Below are positions 4,899-19,127 of a stretch of DNA of 64,000 nucleotides, in pieces (within the stretch, counting starts at the first letter, position 1; every line of letters starts with the position of its first letter). The stretch is from Thalassotalea marina. Its GTDB lineage: Bacteria > Pseudomonadota > Gammaproteobacteria > Enterobacterales > Alteromonadaceae. A model generated the notes under the pieces. That model was not told the DNA's origin. It worked only from the letters and a program-made list of their open reading frames with translations, and searched no databases. The position numbers and the translations under genes were made by a program. Location: NCBI RefSeq assembly GCF_014656435.1, contig NZ_BNCK01000006.1, forward strand, positions 1 through 64,000, written 5' to 3'.

Positions 4899-5828
4899 AT
4901 GGCCGAAGAATTAGACCAGGTTATTGCTAACGCACTACGAGAAGTACTCGAAGTAACTCCCAATGCTATTGGTATTTTTGACCAGTCACTTACTTTGATT
5001 TATTGCAACGATGTTTTAGCCGGTTTGTTCTGTATGACTAGAGCTGAAGCTTTAGGTAAAACACAAGAAGAAATTTTAAAGCGATCTTTTGATACTTCGG
5101 AAGGAATAAACATAGCGTCAGACGATTTTGATTCCTGGTACCAAGAATTAAACTGTAACCAACAGCAAACTCACTTTAACCAATTTGAAGCCGATACCAC
5201 TGAGGGTGTTGTGTTCAAAATGACACGTATGACACTAGATAGTGGTTTAATGGTAATGTTGGGCACCGAGATTACTGAGCTCAAACAAGTACAATCATCA
5301 CTTGAACTCGCACTGACTAAACTTGAATTGTTGGCGAATACTGATCAGCTTACTGGCGTATATAATCGACGATACTTTGAAGATATTGCTCGCAAAGAAA
5401 TTGATCGCTGTATTCGCTACCAACAAACATTTTCCCTATTGTTAATTGATTTAGATCATTTCAAAAACATCAATGACCATTTTGGTCATCATATTGGCGA
5501 TGAAGTATTAATTCATGTGACGTCTATTTGCCAGCGTCAATTGAGATTAACAGATACTTTGTGTCGTATTGGTGGAGAAGAATTTGCCATCATATTACCC
5601 AGTACAGAAGCCAGTGATGCACTGCAAATCGCGGAGCGAATTAGGGAGTCTGTTAACCAGGCAAACATCCCTGTTGATGAACATCAAACCAATATCACCA
5701 TGTCAATTTCCATCGGTGTCACTGAATATAAACGACACGACATGGCGATATCCGATACTTTAATAAGAGCCGACAAAGCACTTTATCGAGTAAAAGAAAA
5801 CGGCAGAAACAGTTGCCTGCTTATTTAA
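4899..5828 (+). CDS. PAS-GGDEF diguanylate cyclase
   Basis: RIGGEEFAIILP (GGEEF active site) and DQLTGVYNRRYF upstream. The N-terminal ~130 aa are PAS-like. No TM segments. Confidence 0.8.
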   Translation: MAEELDQVIANALREVLEVTPNAIGIFDQSLTLIYCNDVLAGLFCMTRAEALGKTQEEILKRSFDTSEGINIASDDFDSWYQELNCNQQQTHFNQFEADTTEGVVFKMTRMTLDSGLMVMLGTEITELKQVQSSLELALTKLELLANTDQLTGVYNRRYFEDIARKEIDRCIRYQQTFSLLLIDLDHFKNINDHFGHHIGDEVLIHVTSICQRQLRLTDTLCRIGGEEFAIILPSTEASDALQIAERIRESVNQANIPVDEHQTNITMSISIGVTEYKRHDMAISDTLIRADKALYRVKENGRNSCLLI

Positions 5829-5837
5829 CGGGGTTTA

Positions 5838-7160
5838 TCAAAGCAATCGATCAAGTTGCTGTTGATATTGCGCAACCGCCATTTCGTCAGCTTTTGCTTT
5901 ATCCAATGCCTGTTGAAAATGTTTAACCGCTTGTTTTGTGTTGCGCTCTATTAGATATAATTTAGCGAGTTCGCCAGATAATTGATGAACTTGGGGATGC
6001 TGTTTTATTCCTGCTTTCAATACTTTAATCGCACGTTCAACATTGTCATGCTCAGCAAAGAACTTAGCGTAGCTTGTAAATCGATTATTGATTTTGTATT
6101 CGCCTAAATAACGCTCAAACTCCTGAAACGCCTGATAATTATTTTCCTCAAGTGCGTATCTAAAAAGCGTAAAATGCGCCACTTCCCCTACCGTTTCAGG
6201 GACGCCATATTTTTTTGCTCTGCGTTTAAAATAGTCAACTATTGCCGTCACGCCACCAAAAGCTTCAACATCTTGTAATGAATAAAAAGTTAAGTCGTGA
6301 TAATCATTAAACTGCCATGTCAGCCCTTTGCTTAACGCGTCAAATGGCGTAGTAAAATGATCGATATGACCACTATAGTTATCATGATAATGATAATTCC
6401 AATCGACTGTCGCTCTGCCGGCTGCTTTAAACACCTCAATTAAACCTTCATGACCTACAAGCGCGTGTTTTTCTTTTTCACCCAACGACAAATAAACCTT
6501 TACACCTAGCCCCTTATTTAACGCTAGGGTGTCTTTGGTTCTAGCAATTTGTGATTCACTATAATATGGCCCACTTGCCAACAATAATCCTTGGAAAGCT
6601 TGTGGGTAGTCATTAAAAAGGCTTAAGCCAAACGAGGCGGCAAACTGCCAGCCAAAATAGAGGTTCTGACCACTGGTATGAAAGGCGTTATCAACTTTTG
6701 GCATAATGTGTTCAACCAAGGTTTTGCTTAGCTGTGCAGAATTACTATTTAATAACTGTGCACGCTGCCTTTTCGAGTTTTGTACAAGTTTTGCGGTGTT
6801 GATGCCGACAACAATAAAAGCGGGACTTGCCGTCATGGTATGAATACCGGCACTTAACGTTTGTTGAAAACCTATGGCGTTGTAAAGGTAATGTTGCCCG
6901 TCCATAACATATAGTACAGGCAGGCGAATGTCTTTGCTGTTGCTGGGAACAAAAACGTCAAGACTTAAGCCTTGTTCTAGCTTAAGTTGATAAAAGTGTC
7001 CCATGTCATTGTTATAAACGTTAGTAAACTTGTGGTCTTTGGCAAATGACATCGAAGAACACAAAACGGTCAGCCAAACAATGGTTTTGCATAAGTTACT
7101 GATTAATGTTGCTGTTGATATGCTACTGAAATTTTTATAGCGCAATAATGATAAAAACAA
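5838..7160 (-). CDS. Secreted esterase-family (alpha/beta hydrolase, enterochelin-esterase-like) protein with C-terminal TPR-like repeats. It may be catalytically atypical
   Basis: LPVLYVMDGQHY motif typical of the putative-esterase fold. Where paralog 9798-11105 has GHSYTG, this protein has FGWQFAASFG, so no clear GxSxG. The C-terminal 100 aa form helical TPR-like repeats. TTG start preceded by AGGAAAGGGG. Confidence 0.6.
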   Translation of the reverse strand: MFLSLLRYKNFSSISTATLISNLCKTIVWLTVLCSSMSFAKDHKFTNVYNNDMGHFYQLKLEQGLSLDVFVPSNSKDIRLPVLYVMDGQHYLYNAIGFQQTLSAGIHTMTASPAFIVVGINTAKLVQNSKRQRAQLLNSNSAQLSKTLVEHIMPKVDNAFHTSGQNLYFGWQFAASFGLSLFNDYPQAFQGLLLASGPYYSESQIARTKDTLALNKGLGVKVYLSLGEKEKHALVGHEGLIEVFKAAGRATVDWNYHYHDNYSGHIDHFTTPFDALSKGLTWQFNDYHDLTFYSLQDVEAFGGVTAIVDYFKRRAKKYGVPETVGEVAHFTLFRYALEENNYQAFQEFERYLGEYKINNRFTSYAKFFAEHDNVERAIKVLKAGIKQHPQVHQLSGELAKLYLIERNTKQAVKHFQQALDKAKADEMAVAQYQQQLDRLL

Positions 7161-7500
7161 AATGATCCCCTTTCCTATTTAACCTCAGGTTTGTATAAGA
7201 AATAGTGCTAAATCAAAGAAAACAATAAGTTAGCAATCTCTTATATTTCTAGGACGATATTTTTGTCTGAATTAAAGGCATTTTGCAGCAGGAATAGCTA
7301 GCTATTTCGCTTCAAAATAACGCAGAAGTCAGTAAAAATAGCACCTAGAAACGCATTGTTTATGCGAAGCTGAGGTTATTTAATTAATTTACGCCTTTTT
7401 AAATGGCAGGGGCAAGCAATACAACCTTAAACCCAGTTGTTTAACTGATGATGAGCTGATGTTTAACTGATGCTTATTCTATTGCTTAAATATCAACAAG

Positions 7501-9579
7501 TTAAAATAGCTTAACTAGCTCTTTTCGAGCAGAAATTATTTGAGTTGTTAGTAAGTTATCGGCCTTTACGTCAGTAATAAAGGTGGTTTTATCTTTCAGT
7601 GTCATCAGTGTGTTAATGCTTGACTGGTTATACGATTTACTCATCAAGTGTCGGGTTTTATGGTTAGTCCAATAAACGCCATCAATCGCAAAAACTGCCA
7701 CATCCACTTGTTCAGCCAGAACTTCAGGGCTGGTTTGTTGCAGTTCAGCCATCGCTATTTGCATCAAGCGATCATCTCTATCAAGTACGTATAAGGTGTC
7801 ATCTCTAATCGCGGCACTTGCCACATTGTCGATGCCTAAAGAGGTTAGTTCACCATTTGTTAGATTCACCACATATAACTCTCTAACTTTATGATGGTTT
7901 GCGCTGATTAAAACTTCATTATCGCTATACCAATCTAGAACAAATCGAACAGGTACTGACACAGCATGTATTTGACTATTGCCCTGCAAGTCTACTTGCA
8001 CTAACTGGTCATTGGCAGAAAGTAAAAGATGTGTTCCATCAGGAGACCAATGAATGTCATTTAAATTGCTCCCTTGACGAAACCTTGTCAGAGGGTACGC
8101 ATGCTGTAGATCAGTTAACCACACCTGCTCTGAGCCATTTTTATCAGAAATATAAGCAATTAAATCACCATTAGGTTGAAACTTGGCTTTTCGTTCAACC
8201 GCAGTACTTCGGCTTAAACTTTTATAAGGCTGAAACTCTTGATTAAAACTACCTTGTACCGACTGCCAAGTTGCCTCATCAGCTAGGTTTATCAAGGCGA
8301 CATCAGTGTCTACATGTCCACGCACACCAACTAAACTTTGCATATCAGGTGCCGCAGTCACCATAATTATGCCCTTTTCAGCTATGGTTATCTCTTCTGT
8401 TTTACCCGATAAATAGAGATTAAAAGTGCCCGAATTATTGGCATAAATAAGGTATTCGCCATTGGCGGCAAAATTTGCTTCAACATAATCATATGCGCCA
8501 GATTGAACTGGACGTTCAATCAATACTTCAGATATTAACTGTCCCTGCTCATCCAGCAAGATAAGCCAATCATTATGATCGCTGTCTCTGGCGATAACAG
8601 CAAACGTGTTTGTCGCAGCATGGTGATCATAATAATAAATGCGCTTTTCACTATTTTGATAAATGGGTTGTTCAACTTGGGTTCTGTTGTCAACCTGCAT
8701 CAATTGATAACGATTTTGTATCATTTTTAAAAATGCGACTTTGTTATTGCCCAACCCATGGGCAAGTTCAATTAAGTGTTGATCACAACGATGTACAGTA
8801 TTTAATTTCGCAGGTGCAGTTAACGCTTGAGCAAAATCAACCGATTGAATAGACCAACAATTATTAGTGGAAGCTTGAGGAGTGCAGCTTTCTTGCACTG
8901 TGGTAAATATCTGACTGCCATCAGGTGAAAAGCTTGGCAAAGTGTAAACAGCGTCAACTTGTGTTAATTGGCTTTCTTTGCCTGACTCAAGGTGTTTTGC
9001 CCATATTTGGCTCTGGCAAGTGCCGATCATGCGGGTAAAAATTAAATATTGTCCGTCGGGTGAAAAAGTTGGAAATAAATCATTTTCTTCACTTTGGGTA
9101 AGTTCTTGTATGTAATTATATTTCACCATTGGCGACGATGACTGATGGTGCCAAAAAAAAACACTCGCGACTAATACCAGCAAAAATAAAATTAAGCCGC
9201 TTTTAAAACTAAAGCGCTGAGGTGATGTAGCAGTTTGCTCTAGCGTTTTGTTATTGGTTTCAATGATTTCAACACGGGCCGTTAATCGATAACCAATTTT
9301 TGGATGTGTAACAATAACCTCCTGGCGTTTTGCATCATCACCTAACACTTTCCTTAATTGTGCAATGCAGCGCTGCAAAGCATTAGGTACCACTTCAACA
9401 TTGGGCCAAATCGCATTTTTTATCACGTCATGCGTCACCACTTCATTTTGATGCTTGGCCAATAGCGCTAATACTTTTAGGATTTTAGGCTCTATCGATT
9501 GTGTATTATCGTCAATAGTCACGGTTGAATGTAAAAGGTCAACCAAAGTGTTATTAACATAAAAGCGAGTGGCAAACAT
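7501..9579 (-). CDS. ToxR/CadC-like membrane-bound one-component regulator: N-terminal OmpR/PhoB-type winged-helix DNA-binding domain, one TM helix, periplasmic TolB-like beta-propeller
   Basis: N-terminus resembles the trans_reg_C domain (LLAKHQNEVVTHDVIKNAIWPNVEV...IGYRL). TM segment LILFLLVLVASVFFW. The periplasmic part has repeated FSPDG, SFSPDGSQIF and WSPDGTHLLL blades. Confidence 0.7.
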   Translation of the reverse strand: MFATRFYVNNTLVDLLHSTVTIDDNTQSIEPKILKVLALLAKHQNEVVTHDVIKNAIWPNVEVVPNALQRCIAQLRKVLGDDAKRQEVIVTHPKIGYRLTARVEIIETNNKTLEQTATSPQRFSFKSGLILFLLVLVASVFFWHHQSSSPMVKYNYIQELTQSEENDLFPTFSPDGQYLIFTRMIGTCQSQIWAKHLESGKESQLTQVDAVYTLPSFSPDGSQIFTTVQESCTPQASTNNCWSIQSVDFAQALTAPAKLNTVHRCDQHLIELAHGLGNNKVAFLKMIQNRYQLMQVDNRTQVEQPIYQNSEKRIYYYDHHAATNTFAVIARDSDHNDWLILLDEQGQLISEVLIERPVQSGAYDYVEANFAANGEYLIYANNSGTFNLYLSGKTEEITIAEKGIIMVTAAPDMQSLVGVRGHVDTDVALINLADEATWQSVQGSFNQEFQPYKSLSRSTAVERKAKFQPNGDLIAYISDKNGSEQVWLTDLQHAYPLTRFRQGSNLNDIHWSPDGTHLLLSANDQLVQVDLQGNSQIHAVSVPVRFVLDWYSDNEVLISANHHKVRELYVVNLTNGELTSLGIDNVASAAIRDDTLYVLDRDDRLMQIAMAELQQTSPEVLAEQVDVAVFAIDGVYWTNHKTRHLMSKSYNQSSINTLMTLKDKTTFITDVKADNLLTTQIISARKELVKLF

Positions 9580-9797
9580 AAAACTTCATTAAAAAACGGC
9601 AATTCGCTCATTGTAGCGAGGGAAAATATCAATTGAAATAACTAACTAAAGAAGTGCCGAAATATCACTTTTTTAACTAGCGTAACAGCTATTACAGTAA
9701 TACATCAGCAATTCATCAGCCCGAAAACATTGTACTCTAGTGACAATTATTCAAAGGTAGCTTTAACTTTTGTTTTAAAATACAAATCAGAGGAACA

Positions 9798-11105
9798 ATG
9801 AAGATTTTTAAACAAGTTACTTTTTGCCTATTAACTATTTATTTAACTTTTGGTGTGATAAATCAATCTATCGCAAATGACACGATACAATTTAACACCA
9901 ACGAATTTAACGCTAATAAATCATTAGTCATAAAACTACCCGAAAGTTATCAGCAATCGCCCAATCGACATTACCCTGTTGTTTACCTGTTAAATGCTAA
10001 CGACTTTTATTTTGGTGATATCACCGAGCATTTTGAACAAACCATCACACGACTAACTTTGCAAAATCGCATTCCTGAAAGCATTGTTGTCTACGTGAAT
10101 AATAAATCTTGGTATCAAGACGCTATAAACCAAGGTGACAGTTTTACAACTTTTTTAACTGATGAGGCGATTACAGCAATCAGCAGTAAGTACCGAGTGT
10201 TAAACAAGCACATACTCGTTGGACATTCGTACACAGGTGCTCTTATGGCAAAAAGTTTTGCCAAGCTGAGTAAGGCATTTACTCATCAACTGATCATTTC
10301 ACCAATATTCCCAGACGTTGATTTTATCCGAGGTGCAGCCAATGCTCAGCAGCCGTCAATGACCAAATACCAGCAAGCACTCTTATTTGTTGACCCGCAA
10401 AATCAACTAGATGTTAGCTTATTAACTGACATGTTATCGGCATCACAATTGCCAGAGTATTTTGATGTTAGCGTTGAACAACACACGGGGCACTTCACTG
10501 TGTTACCTGTTGCAATAACTAAAGGTATGGCAAAGATCTATGCAGACTTTTTACTGACTGAAGAAAAGTCAACGCCACTTAGTCTTGAGCAAATCAAAAG
10601 CCAATATTTAGCCGTACAAAATAAATATCAACAACCTACTGAACGCCAAGACATAGACAGTATTATTACCGCTTTTGCCTCGAGCTATTTAGAACAAGGC
10701 TATTTTGAGCAGGCTTTTGATTTGTGGCAGCACAGTAAAACTAAATTTAGACATTATTTTATTAACAGAGCGGCACAGCGTTTCATGGCTAAACATAACT
10801 ACCAAAGCGCAGAGCAAGTATGGCTAGGGCTAGCTAAAATATTTCCAAACTCTCCTTACGTTTGGCAACACCTTTTAAACCTTGCTGATACAACAAACAA
10901 TAACAAACTAAAACAACATGCTACGTTAGGCTTTGATAGTGCCGTTAAGCAATTTACACAACAAGATCACGCCATGTGGCTGGCCTATATCGAACAAACA
11001 CAGTCGATCAATCAACAGTTAAAACAAGCAGTATTAATCCGAGTTCTGCAGCAAGAGCCAAATAATGAAAAAGCACAAAGTCTTTTACTTAAACAGCATG
11101 ACTAA
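9798..11105 (+). CDS. Secreted esterase-family alpha/beta hydrolase with C-terminal TPR-like repeats (paralog of 5838-7160)
   Basis: Signal peptide. HYPVVYLLNANDFYFG. Nucleophile elbow ILVGHSYTGAL (GxSxG). C-terminal helical repeats. GAGGA RBS before the ATG. Confidence 0.65.
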   Translation: MKIFKQVTFCLLTIYLTFGVINQSIANDTIQFNTNEFNANKSLVIKLPESYQQSPNRHYPVVYLLNANDFYFGDITEHFEQTITRLTLQNRIPESIVVYVNNKSWYQDAINQGDSFTTFLTDEAITAISSKYRVLNKHILVGHSYTGALMAKSFAKLSKAFTHQLIISPIFPDVDFIRGAANAQQPSMTKYQQALLFVDPQNQLDVSLLTDMLSASQLPEYFDVSVEQHTGHFTVLPVAITKGMAKIYADFLLTEEKSTPLSLEQIKSQYLAVQNKYQQPTERQDIDSIITAFASSYLEQGYFEQAFDLWQHSKTKFRHYFINRAAQRFMAKHNYQSAEQVWLGLAKIFPNSPYVWQHLLNLADTTNNNKLKQHATLGFDSAVKQFTQQDHAMWLAYIEQTQSINQQLKQAVLIRVLQQEPNNEKAQSLLLKQHD

Positions 11106-11149
11106 GTGACATACCTCACGCCCCAATTTAAGCGCTTTAAGAAGTTAAC

Positions 11150-14100
11150 TTACTCAATGGAGTTAACTTCATCACTGCTATCTACTTTTGTCTGATTTTT
11201 ATTGTCAGTTGACAGTTCTCTGCTGATTTTTTGGATTGGCGTTTCTTTTGTTGTCGAAGCTTTCCCCGCCGGATGATTCAAATTCGACAACACATTTACC
11301 AGCTCGCCGTCTAATTGCTGCTTGTCAGCAAGTGTCTGTGCAAGAGGTGAAAATACGCTTTCAAGTTGCTGAGAGAACAAGCCAAGCACTTCACTTAAAT
11401 CATGACCTTGCTCAGATTTAGCTGATTTGTTTGGCTTTAAATCACGAACAGCGTCAGTTAGCTCAGATAAGTTAACACTATTGGGTTGTTGTAATATCTT
11501 CGCCAAATTTGTCAATTCCTTCTGCACCAATGAAACTTGCGAAGCAATATTGGCCACAGGGTTGTCACTACCACCCAGATTTTTATGGCGTACGTACTCT
11601 TCTTTGATTTGTAACCAACGATGCTGATCTTCTGGAGTTAAGGTGTTTCTTAACTCACCAAGCTTAAGTAAATTCTCTTCAGCACCAACCGTTAATGTTT
11701 GTGCTTCACCGCGATAGTGATCGGCTATCAGCTGCTCAATTTCTTGCTCTGTCATCACAGGCACAACTTTTTCTGCCATTTTATTCATGTTGCGATAACT
11801 TCCCTGCAACTTAAATGGCGGCTCTATCCGATATTTATCATCTTGAGCGGCAGAGGCAATATACTGCTCGTTGGTTTTTAACACCGTTTGTTGTATTTGC
11901 CTAATGCGCTTAATCACTGCGATGATTTCGTTAACTTCTGCTTGAGAGTATCCGTGTTTTAAATCACTGGCATTGACCGGTTCGCCATCAGCTTGTTTGA
12001 TCAGCTGATACAAGTCATCCATATCTCGTGTTGCCAATGGTGCTAAATAACGGTTACTGGTTAATGAGTTTTCGATAAAACTCAATGAAAATTCATATTC
12101 TCGGCCACTTAGCGTGTCACCTAGATTATAAATATCTGCTCGGTTCGCCAACATGTCTGGGATAGTGAACGCTTCGCCAGACTCTGTATAAGGGTTGCCC
12201 GCCATGATCACAGCAAACTTTTTACCGCGTAAGTCGTACGTTTTGCTTTGTCCTTGCCATACACCATCAACCTTTCGAGAGCCATCACACAGTGAAATAA
12301 ACTTTTGCAAAAACTCAGGGTGAGTGTGCTGAATATCATCGAGATACAACATCACGTTGTTACCCATTTCAAACGCTAGGTTAATTTTTTCTACTTCACT
12401 CCTAGCCGTTGAGTTATTTGCTTGCTCGGGATCGAGTGACACTTGGTCATGACCAATAGAAGGGCAATTAACCTTAACAAAAGTCATACCTAACTTACTG
12501 GCAACATATTCAATTAACGTAGTTTTACCGTAACCTGGTGGAGAAATAAGTAACAATAAGCCCATTAAATCGGAACGCTTTTGGTTGCCTGCTGCGCCAA
12601 TTTGTTTTGCTAAATTAGCCCCAATGATCGGAAAATAAACATCGTTAATTAACTTGTTTCGTACAAAAGAAGATAAAGCTTTAGGCTGAAATTCACGCAT
12701 ATTCAGCTGGGTTCGCTTGTGCTCTAATACTTGTTGTTTTTGCTGATGAAATTGCTTAAATGCTGGCACATGTACATCAACAAATTCTGTTAACCTTGAA
12801 ACAAACTCTTGATAATTAATAGTCAGCTGACGATCAACAATATTGCCGTGTTGCCCTAAGAGTTCCGAGACTGTTTTGTCCGTTTCAGCGGACGAGCTAT
12901 AAAACTGAGCAGCCTCGCCAAAGGTCATTAAACATGCAGCTTCCACTAAAGTATCTTCTGCTGCCTTGATCTGTTGATTCTCAGAAAAGGCACTTAGCCA
13001 AGCATAATAAAGTGCATATTGCTGCCCTGTGTGCTGGCAGGCACCAATTGCTTGTCCAATAGAATGTTCTAAGTTATTAGCTTTGAGTTGTAGTTTTAGG
13101 TCTTTAACGAGAGTTTGACTGGCTTCTTTGGTCACAAAGCTAGAATTACCCTGTGACAATTCTTCGAGTAAATAACGTGCCGCCAAAGCAGGTTGAGCGC
13201 TCAACCATACATGTTGCTGCTGAAAATCACTCAACAGTTCAGTAAATTCAGCTAATAAATCGTTGCGCAGTCCACTAGAGCCAAAGGTTTGCTCCATCAT
13301 ATTTAAATTTACGCAACGGTTTTGTATATCGATACGACTATTATCATTGAGCTGCATGCACCAAAAAGCAAGTACTAGGCGCTTTTCTTGGCAAGGATAA
13401 GCAAGTAAACCAATATCAGCTTTTAACGATAACAAAGCGTTTAAAATCGCCACTGCGTCTTGGTCATGTACCCCCTTGTCATAACCTTCTTGATACCGTT
13501 GTTCGACATAACGTTGAACAACTTTTATCAAGCTATTATCACTTGCGGCGGCGGTTAATTCGGCGATAGCTTGCAGCCCTTTCTTTTCAGCGTCAAATAA
13601 AATACTTGCCGCCAGATATTCACCGCGATACACCGTGCTATTTTCTGATATTAGGTCTTGTTGCCATAAATATTGAGTACCAGCAAACATCGAGCTGTCT
13701 ATGACTTCAAAATATTCACTGCCAGAAATATGCAACAGCATCTCGTTATCTCTTGGCAGTAACGTTAGCTCTGGCTGTTGCTTATTCACGGAAAATTGAT
13801 GATCGCCAATTTTAACTAAACTGCCGTCTGCCGAATAAATATCTGACTTATCACGTAATGCTCGAACCGCCTGCTCTTTAGCGTTTTTTAACTTAGCGTC
13901 TACATCGTCAGCTTTAACATGATCATCTAAGGCTCTAAGCTGCTCAACTAACTGTCTAAGCTTTGTCACCATAGGGTCTGCGGCAAAATAGCTATTGAGT
14001 TTATCTAGGCTGTCAAAACCACTGGTTCGACGGTCGATTCCAGACAAAATACGCTCTGCCGCTGTAAATAACGTCAAACAGCGCTTTTGCTGCGCATCCA

Positions 14101-16387
14101 TCAATTGCTGTTTATGCTGCTCGAAGTTGTCATATACTTCATCGCGTTTTGCCAAGATTTCGCCATGAAACTCATCATAGTCACTAAATTGGCTTTCTAA
14201 TTCTTCCAGCTGGATCAATAACTGCGATAGCTGCTGATCACACTCTTGAGGTGTGTTACTGGCGTTGAGCGCACTGGTTACGCTTTGGTTTAGTAATTTA
14301 AATCGTGCGCCAAATTCAGCACGAGCTTCATCAATACCAACATTTTTCACTGCTAGATCAGCGTTAGCATTAACTCGGTTAACTAAACTAAAAACCGCAG
14401 AGATATCTTCCAGAATACGTGTACGTTGTCTGCTGTCTTCAATATCTATCGACAACATAGTTTGATTAAGTAACTCAAGCCCTGCAATAAGCGTTTCAAT
14501 GCGCTCTTTAATCGGTTTTAGCGCAGAAATTGCATCACATTGAGCCACTGCCTGTTCAATCGATTCTATTTCTTGATAATAAGGTGTTAATGCATTTTCT
14601 TGCTGTAAAAAATCAGCCGTTTGTTGGCTTAATGATTTGCTTAATTGGTCAAGTTGTTGGTCTATTTGATCGATGGCCTCAACATCAATGTATTTAAGTT
14701 CTTTGTGAGAAATAAGCTCACCTTTAAAGCCAGATAATGCCACCAAACCTTCAACATATTGTGCCGCATTATCTGCCGACATATCGGCCAATTCACTTGA
14801 AAGTTGCGCAAACTTCTCTTTTGCGCCAATCAATGTTTCATCTGAGTTTTGCTTAATTGCGGTAACTTTTTCAAACTCATCTAATGCCAATTCTGCCGCT
14901 TCAACCACCTGTTGTAACAATGCATACAAAGAAGCTAGCTCTGAATCATTTAACCAGTGATAGTGGTCAAACAGTTGCTTCGCCTCTTTGACCAAATCGT
15001 TAAAGTGCACCATGCTAGGCGTTTTAACGCCAATTAATTTAACCACGCTGTAAAGTGCAGAAATACCTCTTACTAATTCTGCATTACCTATTTTTCCAAA
15101 GAAGCTGTTATCCGCTGGTTGGCTGCTCGCGTGCTCTTCACTGCAAAATGGTGTTGTCCATATTTGCATTGAGTGCAGTCTTGATGGCTCAGATTCGGCT
15201 GCAAAAATTACTGCTCGGCCATTTTCGTAAATACTTTGACCATGACCGTAAATCGGGTTTTGTAGCGTTCTCGTAATTAAGTTATAAGCAAACAACGCAT
15301 ATTGGCCTGCACTTGGCTCATAAAAGATGTAGAGAAAGTCTTCACCGTTAGGTGACTTGATAATGCGGTGAAGCTCTAAATTATCGGATTTGTCATCAAA
15401 ACTTTTATGGTCACCATTTTGTAAGTAATAGCCACCGGGGAAAATAATGCCATGATCTTCTGGTAATTGAATACAGGAATTTGCAATGGCATCTTGTCGC
15501 AAGACCTGCTGAGTTTTGGTATTAAAAATTAAATGGCGAGTGTGCTCTTCACGATAAGGCTTCACCTTTAACAGGATCAGTTCACCAACCATAGCATAAT
15601 CAATATCAGCATCATCAAGTGACTGGTGTGTATCTTCCACTGGTTCACTATAAATGCCTTCGCCTGCCTCAGTATTATTTTCCACTTTGAGTGTTAGATT
15701 GCCACCCGTGCATTCTACAAACAAAGTATCAAACAAGTTGTAATGGGCAAACTTGCCACTTACTTGCTGGTCACGAGTTACACTTTGCCATTCAAAATCA
15801 AAGTTTTCAGGCTGTTTTAGTGCACGTTCGCCTCGGTTATCGATGTAAGTCACTTGGTGGTTAGCATCGATTGCCCACTGAAATACCCGAATATCATCGA
15901 GACGTTCACCTATCTGAAATATGGCAAACACTTTGCTGCCTTGACGGTAAACATGTGCTAGGAATGTTTTTTTGTAATAGGTGTATAGCTCATCAAAATC
16001 ACGAACAAATTCTGGCTCTTCCAGAAAACTGCCTTCAATAGGTAAGTCGACAATATCGACACCTTCGTCGGTAACTTCCAACTTATGCAAACTGAAAACA
16101 TCCGCCACGGTGATGTTACGTTTTAGACCCAAAAATACGTTGTAGCCAAAAAGTAAGATATCACCAATGGCTGCGATATCACGAGCAACGCAGTTGTTTT
16201 CTGTTCTCACTCTAACACGAGACTCAACCGCCATATCGGTATCACCAAAGGTATTGATACGATCGGTGTTAAGTTGTTGAATTTGTGTATTTAGCTCTGT
16301 ACCTAGGTGGGTCAGTCTACGCTGAATTAGCTCGTAAGAACCGCCTTCTGCAACAGCCTGATTAGTGACATTGTCCTGAATTGCCAT
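11150..16387 (-). CDS. Giant (1745 aa) multidomain protein: N-terminal ~420-aa beta-rich region, ~800-aa alpha-helical/coiled-coil middle, and a single AAA+ ATPase module (AAA_5/MoxR-dynein-like) at residues ~1270-1450
   Basis: Walker A ISPPGYGKTTL (DNA ~12520-12545). Walker B VMLYLDDIQH (DD rather than DE). Sensor-1-like AVIMAGNPYT and RADIYNLGD. ATG with a GGAG RBS. It is the last gene of the patatin/NfeD/flotillin operon. No TM segments seen. Confidence 0.75.
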   Translation of the reverse strand: MAIQDNVTNQAVAEGGSYELIQRRLTHLGTELNTQIQQLNTDRINTFGDTDMAVESRVRVRTENNCVARDIAAIGDILLFGYNVFLGLKRNITVADVFSLHKLEVTDEGVDIVDLPIEGSFLEEPEFVRDFDELYTYYKKTFLAHVYRQGSKVFAIFQIGERLDDIRVFQWAIDANHQVTYIDNRGERALKQPENFDFEWQSVTRDQQVSGKFAHYNLFDTLFVECTGGNLTLKVENNTEAGEGIYSEPVEDTHQSLDDADIDYAMVGELILLKVKPYREEHTRHLIFNTKTQQVLRQDAIANSCIQLPEDHGIIFPGGYYLQNGDHKSFDDKSDNLELHRIIKSPNGEDFLYIFYEPSAGQYALFAYNLITRTLQNPIYGHGQSIYENGRAVIFAAESEPSRLHSMQIWTTPFCSEEHASSQPADNSFFGKIGNAELVRGISALYSVVKLIGVKTPSMVHFNDLVKEAKQLFDHYHWLNDSELASLYALLQQVVEAAELALDEFEKVTAIKQNSDETLIGAKEKFAQLSSELADMSADNAAQYVEGLVALSGFKGELISHKELKYIDVEAIDQIDQQLDQLSKSLSQQTADFLQQENALTPYYQEIESIEQAVAQCDAISALKPIKERIETLIAGLELLNQTMLSIDIEDSRQRTRILEDISAVFSLVNRVNANADLAVKNVGIDEARAEFGARFKLLNQSVTSALNASNTPQECDQQLSQLLIQLEELESQFSDYDEFHGEILAKRDEVYDNFEQHKQQLMDAQQKRCLTLFTAAERILSGIDRRTSGFDSLDKLNSYFAADPMVTKLRQLVEQLRALDDHVKADDVDAKLKNAKEQAVRALRDKSDIYSADGSLVKIGDHQFSVNKQQPELTLLPRDNEMLLHISGSEYFEVIDSSMFAGTQYLWQQDLISENSTVYRGEYLAASILFDAEKKGLQAIAELTAAASDNSLIKVVQRYVEQRYQEGYDKGVHDQDAVAILNALLSLKADIGLLAYPCQEKRLVLAFWCMQLNDNSRIDIQNRCVNLNMMEQTFGSSGLRNDLLAEFTELLSDFQQQHVWLSAQPALAARYLLEELSQGNSSFVTKEASQTLVKDLKLQLKANNLEHSIGQAIGACQHTGQQYALYYAWLSAFSENQQIKAAEDTLVEAACLMTFGEAAQFYSSSAETDKTVSELLGQHGNIVDRQLTINYQEFVSRLTEFVDVHVPAFKQFHQQKQQVLEHKRTQLNMREFQPKALSSFVRNKLINDVYFPIIGANLAKQIGAAGNQKRSDLMGLLLLISPPGYGKTTLIEYVASKLGMTFVKVNCPSIGHDQVSLDPEQANNSTARSEVEKINLAFEMGNNVMLYLDDIQHTHPEFLQKFISLCDGSRKVDGVWQGQSKTYDLRGKKFAVIMAGNPYTESGEAFTIPDMLANRADIYNLGDTLSGREYEFSLSFIENSLTSNRYLAPLATRDMDDLYQLIKQADGEPVNASDLKHGYSQAEVNEIIAVIKRIRQIQQTVLKTNEQYIASAAQDDKYRIEPPFKLQGSYRNMNKMAEKVVPVMTEQEIEQLIADHYRGEAQTLTVGAEENLLKLGELRNTLTPEDQHRWLQIKEEYVRHKNLGGSDNPVANIASQVSLVQKELTNLAKILQQPNSVNLSELTDAVRDLKPNKSAKSEQGHDLSEVLGLFSQQLESVFSPLAQTLADKQQLDGELVNVLSNLNHPAGKASTTKETPIQKISRELSTDNKNQTKVDSSDEVNSIE

Positions 16388-16450: not shown

Positions 16451-18433
16451 CTATTTAACGTCGGTTGTATTTTTGTCACCTAAATTTAATAAGTTTGCCA
16501 ACATACCTTTTTGGCTATCGTCTGCGTTGTTCAGTGTTGATAACAACTTAGCCATATTAACGTTTTTCAATGTTTCACTGGTTTGATTAACCCCTGAAAG
16601 CACCCCTCCTAAATCATCCATAATATTGCGATCACCGTTTAATTGATCTTTGAACAGGCTTTGAACCGTTTCACTCTCGTTAACTAAGCCATCAATTGAT
16701 TTACCAACGGTAATAGACTTCATGAACTGTCTTAAGAACTCTCCGTCACCGCCCATGATATTAATATTGGCTTCTGCAAGTGCAGTTGCTAGAACTTGGG
16801 CTTGTTTTTCAGCTAAATCAACGCTGTTATCTAGTTTTGCAAGCGTCAACTCACGTTCTTGATTTAAGCGTAAGCCAAAGGTTTCAAATTCACGCGCTTG
16901 CTCTGACATGGCGTTTAATACTTCTTGTTTCTCTCTTAAACCTGTTGCCTCTGCTAGGGCTTTTTCTTCGATACCTTTTGCTTCGGCAGTCAATTTAAGT
17001 TCAAGCGACTTAGCAATCGCCTCACCTTCTTTCTCTTTAGCCTCAGCTTGCGCCAATGTTACTTGTGCATCAGCTAAACCAGCTGACGCGGCTTCTGCTT
17101 GGTTACCTTCAGCAAGGATCTTCTTAGCTTCCGACTGTTTAGACGCGGCTTTTAACTCTGCATCAGCAATAACTTGTAGCTCTTTCGCTTTAAATTCTGC
17201 AGCCTGCTCTTTAGCCTTAGCTGCTTCAATATCTTTAACTAACGCTTCTTCTGCTTCAGCCTGTGCTTTTATTACTTGTTCGTCTTTTAGGCGCGTTGCT
17301 TGTGATACCACGCGAAGATCTTTAATTCGCTCTTCTTCTTCCGCAACACTTTTTTCAACCGCTATACGCTCTTTTTGCACCTGAGCAATATTTTTACGTT
17401 CAACTTCTAGCGCTTTTTCTTTATCTATACGTAAAGTTTCTACTTCTTTTTCACGGTCAATAGATTCAATTTGACGAGCGCGAGTTACTTTTTCTTGTTC
17501 AATTGCCACAGCTCTTAAGCGGTTCTGTTCAGCAACTTCAGCTTCACGCATTTTGTTTTCTTCAGCAATAGCAACAGCTTGCTCTGTTTGAATGCGTGCT
17601 TGCTCAGACTTAGCTCGCTCTTCTTCAACAATTTTAGCTGTTTCTGCTTCTTCTCTTGCTTTAACAGTAGCAATCTCACGTGCTTGTTTAGCGGATGCAT
17701 CAGCCAACTGGCGGTCCAGCTCTAATCGTTTTTCTTCTGCTTCAATGTCTTGACGTTTAATTCGTATTTCTTCTTGGCGTTTTAAATCGTTAGTTTGAAC
17801 ACTTTGTTGCGCCGTTAATTCAGTGATTCTGCGAATACCTTCTGAATCCATAATGTTGTTTGGATCAAGATCGTTAATTGACGTTTGCTCTAAAAAGTCG
17901 ATGGCAACATCTTCTAAAACAAAACCAGATAAATCTTGCCCAATCACTTCTTTAATTTTGTCTCTAAAAATATCACGCTGAGTAAATAATTCAGTAAAGT
18001 TAAGCTGTTTACCTACCGTTTTAAGGGCTTCTGAAAATTTCGCTTCGAATAATTCTTGTAATGTTTCAGGGTACGCAGAACGTTCACAACCTACCTGCTT
18101 AGCAACACGTAAAATGTCTTCTTTAGTTTCATTTACACGGATATAAAAGGTGATGATGATGTCAGCACGAATATTATCTTGGCATATCAAACCAGAGCGA
18201 CCTTTACGCTCCAGTACCATACGCTTTGTTGAAATATCCATAACTTCTTTTTTATGGATAATTGGAATGACCATGCCACCAGTTGTACTAATGGTAGGCT
18301 CAGCTCTGAGCTTATTGATAATGAGGGCTTTGCCTTGTTCTACTTTGTTATAAAACTTCGCCACCATGATTAATAAAGAAAAGACGACTAATACGCCAAT
18401 GCCAATAGCTAGGTAAAGTGGTTCCATTACCAT
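16451..18433 (-). CDS. Flotillin-like SPFH/band-7 protein (YqiK-like) with a long E/A/K-rich coiled coil
   Basis: N-terminal TM (LAIGIGVLVVFSLLIMVA) followed by an SPFH core (…MVIPIIHKKEVMDISTKRMVLERKGRSGLICQDNIRADIIITFYIRV…). Then ~300 aa of EA-rich heptad repeats. 660 aa. Confidence 0.8.
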   Translation of the reverse strand: MVMEPLYLAIGIGVLVVFSLLIMVAKFYNKVEQGKALIINKLRAEPTISTTGGMVIPIIHKKEVMDISTKRMVLERKGRSGLICQDNIRADIIITFYIRVNETKEDILRVAKQVGCERSAYPETLQELFEAKFSEALKTVGKQLNFTELFTQRDIFRDKIKEVIGQDLSGFVLEDVAIDFLEQTSINDLDPNNIMDSEGIRRITELTAQQSVQTNDLKRQEEIRIKRQDIEAEEKRLELDRQLADASAKQAREIATVKAREEAETAKIVEEERAKSEQARIQTEQAVAIAEENKMREAEVAEQNRLRAVAIEQEKVTRARQIESIDREKEVETLRIDKEKALEVERKNIAQVQKERIAVEKSVAEEEERIKDLRVVSQATRLKDEQVIKAQAEAEEALVKDIEAAKAKEQAAEFKAKELQVIADAELKAASKQSEAKKILAEGNQAEAASAGLADAQVTLAQAEAKEKEGEAIAKSLELKLTAEAKGIEEKALAEATGLREKQEVLNAMSEQAREFETFGLRLNQERELTLAKLDNSVDLAEKQAQVLATALAEANINIMGGDGEFLRQFMKSITVGKSIDGLVNESETVQSLFKDQLNGDRNIMDDLGGVLSGVNQTSETLKNVNMAKLLSTLNNADDSQKGMLANLLNLGDKNTTDVK

Positions 18434-18500: not shown

Positions 18501-19127
18501 TTAGATTGCATAACGTGCAACGATATAGACGTGCGAATCAGCGTTATATTCGATGAGTAACACTTTGTCGCCACGATTAAAAAGCTGATCTTCGGCGCAA
18601 CGAACATCAAGTAAGATTTCTGCACCGTCGTTAAAAATTTTTGCTTGACCAAATGTTGGCGTCACGCTGCTTGTTGAAATGGTTGCTTCTAAACCAACAA
18701 ACTTAGCACTGCTTGCCGTTTCAGCAGTGGCAAACATAGACTTAAATGGTCTTAACATGATTGCCGCTATTGGCAGTGAGATAAAAAAGATAACGACATT
18801 TGCAATCGCCCCAGCGCCAAAATACAGCCAACCACTGGGTAACAAATCAAGCACATAATACTGTGTGTAAACGCTGATTAGCCAACACACGAGAGCAACA
18901 ATGCTAATGACCAGTGTGAAAGGAATACCAGATAAGCCAAACGTTAACATAAAGCCAGATAGACCACCTATTGAACCATCGGCGTCAATATCCGCGTCAA
19001 CATCACCAGAGAAGTCTAAGTCGACCAGCCCTAAAAGACCAACAATCCAATAAACAACGACAACTCCCAATACCACAGAAAATATGACAGTTGGGAAGTT
19101 AGTAGAGACTTGAAATAGCTCTTCCAT
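18501..19127 (-). CDS. NfeD-like (YqiJ/YuaF-like) membrane protein with a C-terminal OB-fold
   Basis: Four hydrophobic segments, then a C-terminal beta-rich tail (KFVGLEATISTSSVTPTFGQAKIFNDGAEILLDVRCAEDQLFNRGDKVLLIEYN). It has the canonical position upstream of the flotillin gene. Confidence 0.7.
   Translation of the reverse strand: MEELFQVSTNFPTVIFSVVLGVVVVYWIVGLLGLVDLDFSGDVDADIDADGSIGGLSGFMLTFGLSGIPFTLVISIVALVCWLISVYTQYYVLDLLPSGWLYFGAGAIANVVIFFISLPIAAIMLRPFKSMFATAETASSAKFVGLEATISTSSVTPTFGQAKIFNDGAEILLDVRCAEDQLFNRGDKVLLIEYNADSHVYIVARYAI

Follow-up and report, generated by a model that had tools for sequence, protein, structure and literature searches.

What does a membrane-bound regulator control when it is encoded between two secreted hydrolase-like proteins, one of which carries glutamine in place of the catalytic serine? 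The question is raised by three neighbouring open reading frames (ORFs) in a 64 kb stretch of DNA from Thalassotalea marina, referred to here as the window: est1 (5838-7160, minus strand, 440 amino acids, TTG start), the central regulator gene (7501-9579, minus strand, 692 amino acids) and est2 (9798-11105, plus strand, 435 amino acids). The coordinates, which a first-pass annotation had assigned from the letters alone, hold when checked against the sequence, and the regulator is 100% identical to the T. marina protein listed at NCBI as 'winged helix-turn-helix domain-containing protein'. The reading that we favour, and consider fairly probable, is that the regulator is a one-component system of the ToxR/CadC type that activates the adjacent secreted-hydrolase genes, and that the product of est1 is not a hydrolase.

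The domain anatomy of the regulator supports its placement among the ToxR/CadC-type proteins. It begins at residue 1 with an OmpR/PhoB-type winged helix (residues 1-105; 9265-9579, minus strand), presumably cytoplasmic, that matches Pfam Trans_reg_C at residues 29-99 (E=6e-14), while the NCBIfam CadC and HilA models match the N-terminus only (residues 3-117); no Pfam Response_reg match was found. In an AlphaFold model built with 29 homologues, which has a predicted local distance difference test score (pLDDT) of 86.6, the winged helix is followed by a disordered linker (109-127), a single helix (129-146) and an all-beta region (157-691). The helix is hydrophobic in sequence (GLILFLLVLVASVFFW; 9142-9195, minus strand) and is predicted to be the one transmembrane segment, which would place the all-beta region in the periplasm. 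This region contains a Pfam PD40 match at 159-187 (E=2e-13), further propeller-family matches at 460-575 and the blade motifs FSPDGQ, FSPDGS and WSPDGT. Neither the periplasmic domain of CadC nor the small ToxR fold was matched by the regulator, residues 150-690 yielding PD40 and other propeller families only, and against the TolB equivalog TIGR02800 the protein reaches 64.8 bits with a cutoff of 343 bits, the blades alone matching.

The first-pass annotation had described this protein as a ToxR/CadC-like regulator with an OmpR-type winged helix, one transmembrane helix and a single TolB-like propeller. All of this stands except the single propeller, in place of which the model suggests two in tandem, of about six blades each and together about 535 amino acids long, a blade count that was taken from four-strand groupings in the secondary-structure string and not from three-dimensional coordinates. 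Propeller 1 would span residues ~157-431 (8287-9111, minus strand) and includes the PD40 match, and propeller 2 would span ~462-691 (7507-8196, minus strand), where it is backed by the propeller Pfam matches and by Foldseek, whose best matches to the regulator are tandem double propellers (LRP6 E1E2, Aip1, EML1). Four cysteines of propeller 1 (C188, C232, C241, C265) are invariant in the alignment of homologues, as is, across 29 homologues, the recognition-helix motif VVPNALQRC (residues 63-71). The architecture had also been called unusual, a description that did not survive the database searches, since about 50 full-length homologues with 28-41% identity were found in Pseudoalteromonas, Thalassotalea, Pleionea, Colwellia, Kangiellaceae and others, together with hundreds of further proteins sharing the layout, which carry the JGI name 'DNA-binding wHTH / Tol biopolymer transport system component'.

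The regulator alignment was used to gather a comparison set of 79 related loci (1.15 Mb); L numbers below denote individual loci. The regulator family is present in several copies in some genomes, for example in a Colwellia metagenome-assembled genome (L031, L073, L078) and in P. umbrosa (L013, L052), and two loci (L025, L065) contain two regulator copies each, which suggests paralogous circuits, each with its own hydrolase targets.

Both genes that flank the regulator encode IroE-like alpha/beta-hydrolase domains followed by a helical, TPR-like tail, and for both products a Sec-type signal peptide is plausible. In est2 the nucleophile elbow has its normal form, as the first reading of the sequence had noted: Ser144 (codon 10227-10229) lies in GHSYTG (VGHSYTG at 10218-10238, plus strand) and His232 (10491-10493) in TGHFT, and both residues are invariant in 26 members of the est2 family. 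No Pfam esterase match was obtained for est2, which has few close relatives: a word-indexed homologue search returned only est2 itself, and an exhaustive search, which assembled a family of 697 at E<1e-3, placed 12 sequences below E=1e-30. The est2 product matches the IroE-like serine hydrolase 3gff of the PDB with E=2e-5. It is probably an active Ser-His esterase. The est1 product, by comparison, matches Pfam Esterase (PF00756) at residues 65-233 with E=5e-6 and 26.9 bits (cutoff 22 bits), and its AlphaFold model (pLDDT 90) has nine helices (295-439) after the alpha/beta-hydrolase domain, Foldseek listing as its nearest solved folds 3gff (E=9e-12), BesA (2qm0) and fungal siderophore esterases (6gu*).

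How the two proteins are related could not be read from their pairwise comparison (18% identity, BLASTP E=0.11), a borderline score that would misleadingly have spoken against any relationship; the comparison of profiles decided the matter. When the est1 clade (17 sequences) was aligned with the est2 family (26 sequences) in hhalign, the match had a probability of 100% and E=1.9e-46 over 373 columns, covering the hydrolase domain, the linker and the C-terminal helical tail. The term 'paralogous' that had been applied to the pair is thus upheld as far as homology is concerned and fails where it would imply recent duplication; est1 and est2 are ancient sister families. As to the TPR-like repeats with which both were said to end, the est1 tail exceeds the Pfam cutoff for TPR_14 (residues 363-401, 25.3 bits against 23.5 bits), whereas est2 stays below it (18.2 bits) and has a tail that aligns with that of est1 in hhalign.

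The central observation on est1 is that glutamine occupies the position of the nucleophile. The first-pass annotation had read GWQFAAS where the elbow was expected and had proposed that the protein may be a non-catalytic binding paralogue; the reading is exact (FGWQFAA at 6656-6636, minus strand), and structure-guided alignment bears the substitution out. Gln172 (codon 6647-6645) falls on the catalytic serine in the sequence alignment, in the profile alignment with 3gff, in hhalign against the est2 family and in the AlphaFold model, where strand 162-171, Q172 and helix 173-184 form the nucleophile elbow. The profile alignment with 3gff (E=1e-43) sets FGWQFAA on VGHSFGG and DHxTTP on ETHQSV, so that His268 (IDHFTTP; codon 6359-6357) aligns with the histidine of 3gff. 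The serine is gone and not shifted, as the displaced-serine explanation fails because the serine that ends GWQFAAS varies within the est1 clade. Among the 16 clade homologues, which are 25-47% identical to est1, 15 have GWQ and one (P0134) has GWE, and since GWQ is kept to this extent the exchange of Ser for Gln is a family trait rather than decay; the est1 reading frame is likewise intact. We infer that est1 is probably non-hydrolytic and that it most likely binds a ligand instead of cleaving it, acting alongside est2.

The rival that deserves most attention holds that est1 is still an enzyme in which Gln172, along with the retained His268, Asp87 and Arg133, carries out a non-canonical reaction or some other residue is the nucleophile, est1 and est2 catalysing successive steps. 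The pocket of est1 is as conserved as in active enzymes, with D87, Q89, G170 and W171 invariant in the clade and Q172, H268 and R133 nearly so, P0134 has glutamate at the position of Gln172, the protein is well folded by its model, and its regulator and operator context resembles that of active hydrolases. A conserved pocket is expected of a binding protein just as much, though, and the variable serine of GWQFAAS offers no substitute nucleophile. An amide cannot serve as a nucleophile, and we know of no alpha/beta hydrolase with glutamine at the nucleophile elbow. Taking both sides together, we regard a catalytic est1 as unlikely.

A more far-reaching idea, which we consider quite improbable, makes est1 a co-sensor that captures the substrate without cleaving it, docks with its TPR tail on the propellers of the regulator and thereby switches on est2 as well as its own gene. 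It would liken est1 to co-components such as ToxS, TcpH and VtrC or to the partners of binding-protein-dependent sensors, and, if true, a ToxR-type receptor would have a pseudo-enzyme as the subunit that binds its ligand.

Two further esterase-family genes near regulators, L078:4074-5231 and L029:10918-11694 (both plus strand), also lack the nucleophile serine (LASGERFG and MSGFRVNG, respectively), and nucleophile loss may have occurred more than once among regulator-linked esterases. A role of the locus as a siderophore esterase, considered by analogy with IroE and BesA, was rejected, as no siderophore uptake or transport genes adjoin the module in the window and metallo-beta-lactamase (MBL)-fold and PF00144 proteins are just as much partners of the regulator family.

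A connection between the regulator and its neighbours is supported by a phased repeat in the intergenic DNA. With one mismatch allowed, CATCAG-N5-CATCAG occurs three times in the window where 0.19 matches are expected, and all three lie within the two intergenic regions that flank the regulator gene, each pointing at an esterase gene. The predicted est2 operator (9694-9719, plus strand) reads ACAG-N7-TCAG-N7-TCAG (tattACAGtaataCATCAGcaattCATCAG) with an 11-bp period and consists of the match at 9703-9719 (plus strand) together with a third, degenerate repeat at 9694. It is oriented towards est2, with 78 bp between its end and the est2 ATG, and it is also upstream of the regulator gene, at 115-140 bp from the ATG of that gene. 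The predicted est1 operator (7445-7472, minus strand) begins 29 bp past the regulator stop codon and contains three perfect CATCAG repeats, again with an 11-bp period and directed towards est1, which account for the two remaining, overlapping matches. At the orthologous position L001 has CATCAGctattCATCAG, about 80 bp before the start of an est1-like gene. The regulatory link that had been suspected through the intergenic regions 9580-9797 and 7161-7500 is supported by a conserved phased repeat in both, from which a shared control of est1 and est2 may be read.

The same repeat marks regulator genes across the related loci. Exact copies of CATCAG-N5-CATCAG fall into intergenic DNA flanking the regulator in 15 of 16 cases, and with up to one mismatch 47 of the 54 matches are no more than 400 bp away from the regulator, four more being found just upstream of the divergent hydrolase gene where the gap is longer. 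A three-repeat pattern, TCA[GT]-N7 repeated three times, has 68 matches in 49 of the 79 loci within 600 bp upstream of the regulator, a zone that makes up 2% of the strand-bases, and only 8 matches elsewhere. The operator can thus be described in general terms as three repeats with a TCAG core, which take the form TTCATCAGC in the closer clade and AAATCAG or ACGTCAG in the more distant one. The repeats lie on the strand of the hydrolase gene, with 65-115 bp between their end and its start codon, so that the distance of 78 bp at est2 is canonical.

Two pairs of the eight outlying matches, at L015:681 and L058:9221, also stand upstream of esterase genes. These extra TCAG triplets, L015:681-717 (plus strand) and L058:9210-9246 (minus strand), are 2-6 kb from the regulator and precede the esterase genes L015 778-1668 and L058 8264-9154, and regulons can, as far as such predicted sites tell, include non-adjacent hydrolase genes.

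Gene order is conserved as well. In 67 of 76 loci the regulator has a secreted-hydrolase gene as its immediate, divergently oriented upstream neighbour, the partners being MBL-fold proteins that are distantly B1-like (39), IroE-like esterases (25), PF00144 proteins (2) and a PD40 protein (1). The T. marina trio itself has counterparts, for L080, L081 and 12 places like them pair the regulator with a divergent operon in which an est2-like gene precedes an est1-like one; in L080/L081 the former is 32% identical to est2 (FAHSYGAAF), the latter has GWQFAA, and a TCAG triplet stands about 65 bp upstream. Regulator and operator adjoin an est1-like gene in L084, L085, L086 and L001, and in L082 and L087, where est1-like genes have no regulator nearby, the operator was not found either. 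By this comparison the trio of T. marina is a conserved unit, in which the regulator gene separates est1 from est2 and est1 has an operator copy of its own.

Some of these loci contain smaller genes as well. In many of the more distant loci the target esterase gene shares its transcription unit with a gene for a small stand-alone periplasmic PD40 protein of ~290-315 amino acids (for example L072:5025-5897, minus strand, and L085:7693-9562, plus strand), and ORFs of ~145 amino acids with no Pfam match recur in L084 and L085.

It must be asked whether the phased TCAG repeats are read by the membrane regulator at all, or by another member of the OmpR/PhoB family such as a global PhoB-like response regulator, the membrane regulator being a mere neighbour. 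The 11-bp direct repeats are the general binding mode of OmpR/PhoB winged helices and would suit such a protein. Yet the repeat accompanies the regulator gene in dozens of genera and beside target hydrolases of differing folds, is missing at est1-like genes that lack the regulator, and within the 64 kb is confined to the regions flanking the regulator, while the invariant recognition helix VVPNALQRC is matched by an invariant TCAG core; we therefore hold a different reader to be very improbable. That the trio are unlinked neighbours and est1 a decaying copy, as the 18% identity of est1 and est2, the TTG start and the atypically long upstream spacer of est1 might suggest, is scarcely credible given 16 clade homologues with the same substitution, an intact frame with a confidently predicted fold, the recurrence of the trio elsewhere as regulator plus operon, and an operator common to est1 and est2.

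If the regulator does act on these repeats, the system could work as follows. The winged helix, which has no receiver domain, would be tethered by the single membrane helix to the periplasmic double propeller, and several regulator molecules would bind head-to-tail on two or three direct repeats with the TCAG core, spaced by 11 bp or one helical turn, on the strand of the hydrolase gene and ~65-115 bp before its start. Once the propellers register a periplasmic signal, possibly the substrate or product of the hydrolases, binding would activate rather than repress the hydrolase gene in the style of PhoB, OmpR and ToxR. The est2 product would then cleave its substrate, and est1, which keeps a pocket with Asp87, Arg133 and His268, would bind the ligand.

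Several observations weigh against this reading of a regulator-driven hydrolase system. The assignment of the operator to the regulator draws on co-localisation and conservation. The est2 operator has just two perfect repeats, the third being degenerate, and the est1 operator lies 284 bp from the start codon compared with 65-115 bp in the related loci, in addition to which the est1 spacer folds strongly as RNA (-73.2 kcal/mol, z=-3.78 against shuffles); control of est1 may accordingly be more complex or weakened. CATCAG is over-represented in the window, with 63 copies on both strands against 24.9 expected from dinucleotide shuffles, although even at that raised frequency only ~0.03 exact phased pairs are expected. 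A scan for the sigma-70 consensus showed no promoter enrichment in the region, 8 being found and 16 expected. As for the enzyme, est2 has Asn (LNA) for the Asp of the family's LDG motif and WYQD for RxRD, and its activity is not assured because this Asp and the RxRD motif are missing. Finally, the partner hydrolases have three folds that are unrelated to one another and so imply no single substrate; one may speculate that hydrolysis of esters, lactones and lactams is a theme common to the targets.

Most CATCAG copies in the 64 kb lie within coding regions, and the excess of the hexamer is probably a codon or dipeptide bias.

The spacer between the predicted est1 operator and the TTG start (7161-7444, minus strand, 284 nt) has features of its own. 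It contains 24-nt inverted arms (7180-7203 and 7355-7378), and a purine-rich, Shine-Dalgarno-like stretch, AGGAAAGGGGA, ends ~6 nt before the est1 start. A perfect 14-bp palindrome, AATAGCTAGCTATT, at 7293-7306 lies inside an imperfect hairpin that extends further, with arms at 7280-7289 and 7309-7318; another dimeric regulator might bind there, or the palindrome may belong to a structured leader. Removal of ~199 bp would restore the usual distance from operator to start; insertion of a mobile element in the spacer is unsupported, as the window and the 79 loci contain no second copy of it, and neither an ORF nor an Rfam match was found within it (an Rfam scan of 5700-11300 at E<=1 gave no match). 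A structured leader and the remnant of an insertion are both conceivable readings of the spacer.

Few ToxR/CadC-type regulators are known, and each of these has a small sensor domain particular to it. WmpR, a ToxR-like regulator from Pseudoalteromonas tunicata, may be a relative of the T. marina protein. Like CadC of E. coli and ToxR and TcpP of Vibrio cholerae, the T. marina regulator combines a winged helix that has no receiver domain with one transmembrane helix and a periplasmic C-terminal sensor, and it shares with them conserved periplasmic cysteines and an adjacent or divergent target gene. It differs from CadC and ToxR in that its sensor, two PD40 propellers of ~535 amino acids, is not homologous to theirs; unlike the ToxR and TcpP systems, the T. 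marina locus has no ToxS- or TcpH-like partner gene; and, unlike in all three, the predicted operator consists of two or three head-to-tail 11-bp repeats and the targets are secreted hydrolases. The blades resemble those of TolB in being of the (F/W)SPDG type, whereas the N-terminal domain of TolB is missing, there are two propellers, and a DNA-binding domain is fused to them.

On the side of the DNA, the closest parallel is the pho box, in which short direct repeats 11 bp apart, upstream of or overlapping the -35 element, are bound by tandem winged helices. The predicted operator resembles such PhoB/OmpR operators in its direct repeats one helical turn (11 bp) apart and differs from the pho box in the repeat itself (TTCATCAGC, or AAATCAG and ACGTCAG at distant loci) and in a protein that would be membrane-bound and unphosphorylated. 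The esterases, in turn, have the fold and periplasmic location of IroE, BesA and the Shewanella oneidensis protein 3gff (PF00756), with the histidine kept in both est1 and est2 and the serine in est2. They depart from these enzymes by an extra C-terminal TPR-like domain in both, by glutamine for serine in est1, by the missing LDG Asp and RxRD in est2, and by a window in which siderophore uptake genes do not adjoin them.

A literature search on ToxR-like or CadC regulators combined with TolB, PD40, propeller or metallo-beta-lactamase found no description of this type of regulator, and PD40 or TolB-type sensors are not mentioned in a survey of transmembrane regulators (PMC10269533). What is new here is the conserved phased operator and the family-wide pairing of regulator and hydrolase. 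The regulator family adds to the ToxR/CadC-type proteins a large branch with a double-propeller sensor, spread over many marine gammaproteobacterial genera and often present in several copies per genome. With a candidate operator and a target class of secreted hydrolases, many of them B1-like MBL-fold proteins, the system is directly testable, and if the regulators sense xenobiotics or ligands of the cell envelope, they would constitute a widespread inducible-hydrolase circuit in the ocean with a possible link to antibiotic resistance. The esterase-TPR clade with its exchange of Ser for Gln would, for its part, provide a natural pair of enzyme and pseudo-enzyme that appears to be co-regulated and, in some loci, co-transcribed with the active sister.

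The module is bordered on both sides by convergent genes. On the left, a PAS-GGDEF gene (4899-5828) runs towards est1, the stop codons (5828 and 5838) being separated by a 9-bp gap, and a short GC-containing hairpin at 5802-5820 that is terminator-like on both strands is common to the two genes. On the right, convergent with est2, a gene at 11150-16387 (minus strand) encodes a protein of 1745 amino acids whose domains are DUF3686 ('ATPase involved in DNA repair', E=2e-186), DUF7902 and, at the C-terminus, AAA. The ORFs 16451-18433 and 18501-19127 (both minus strand) were noted as lying downstream of the DUF3686 gene on the same strand, and the three may form an operon.

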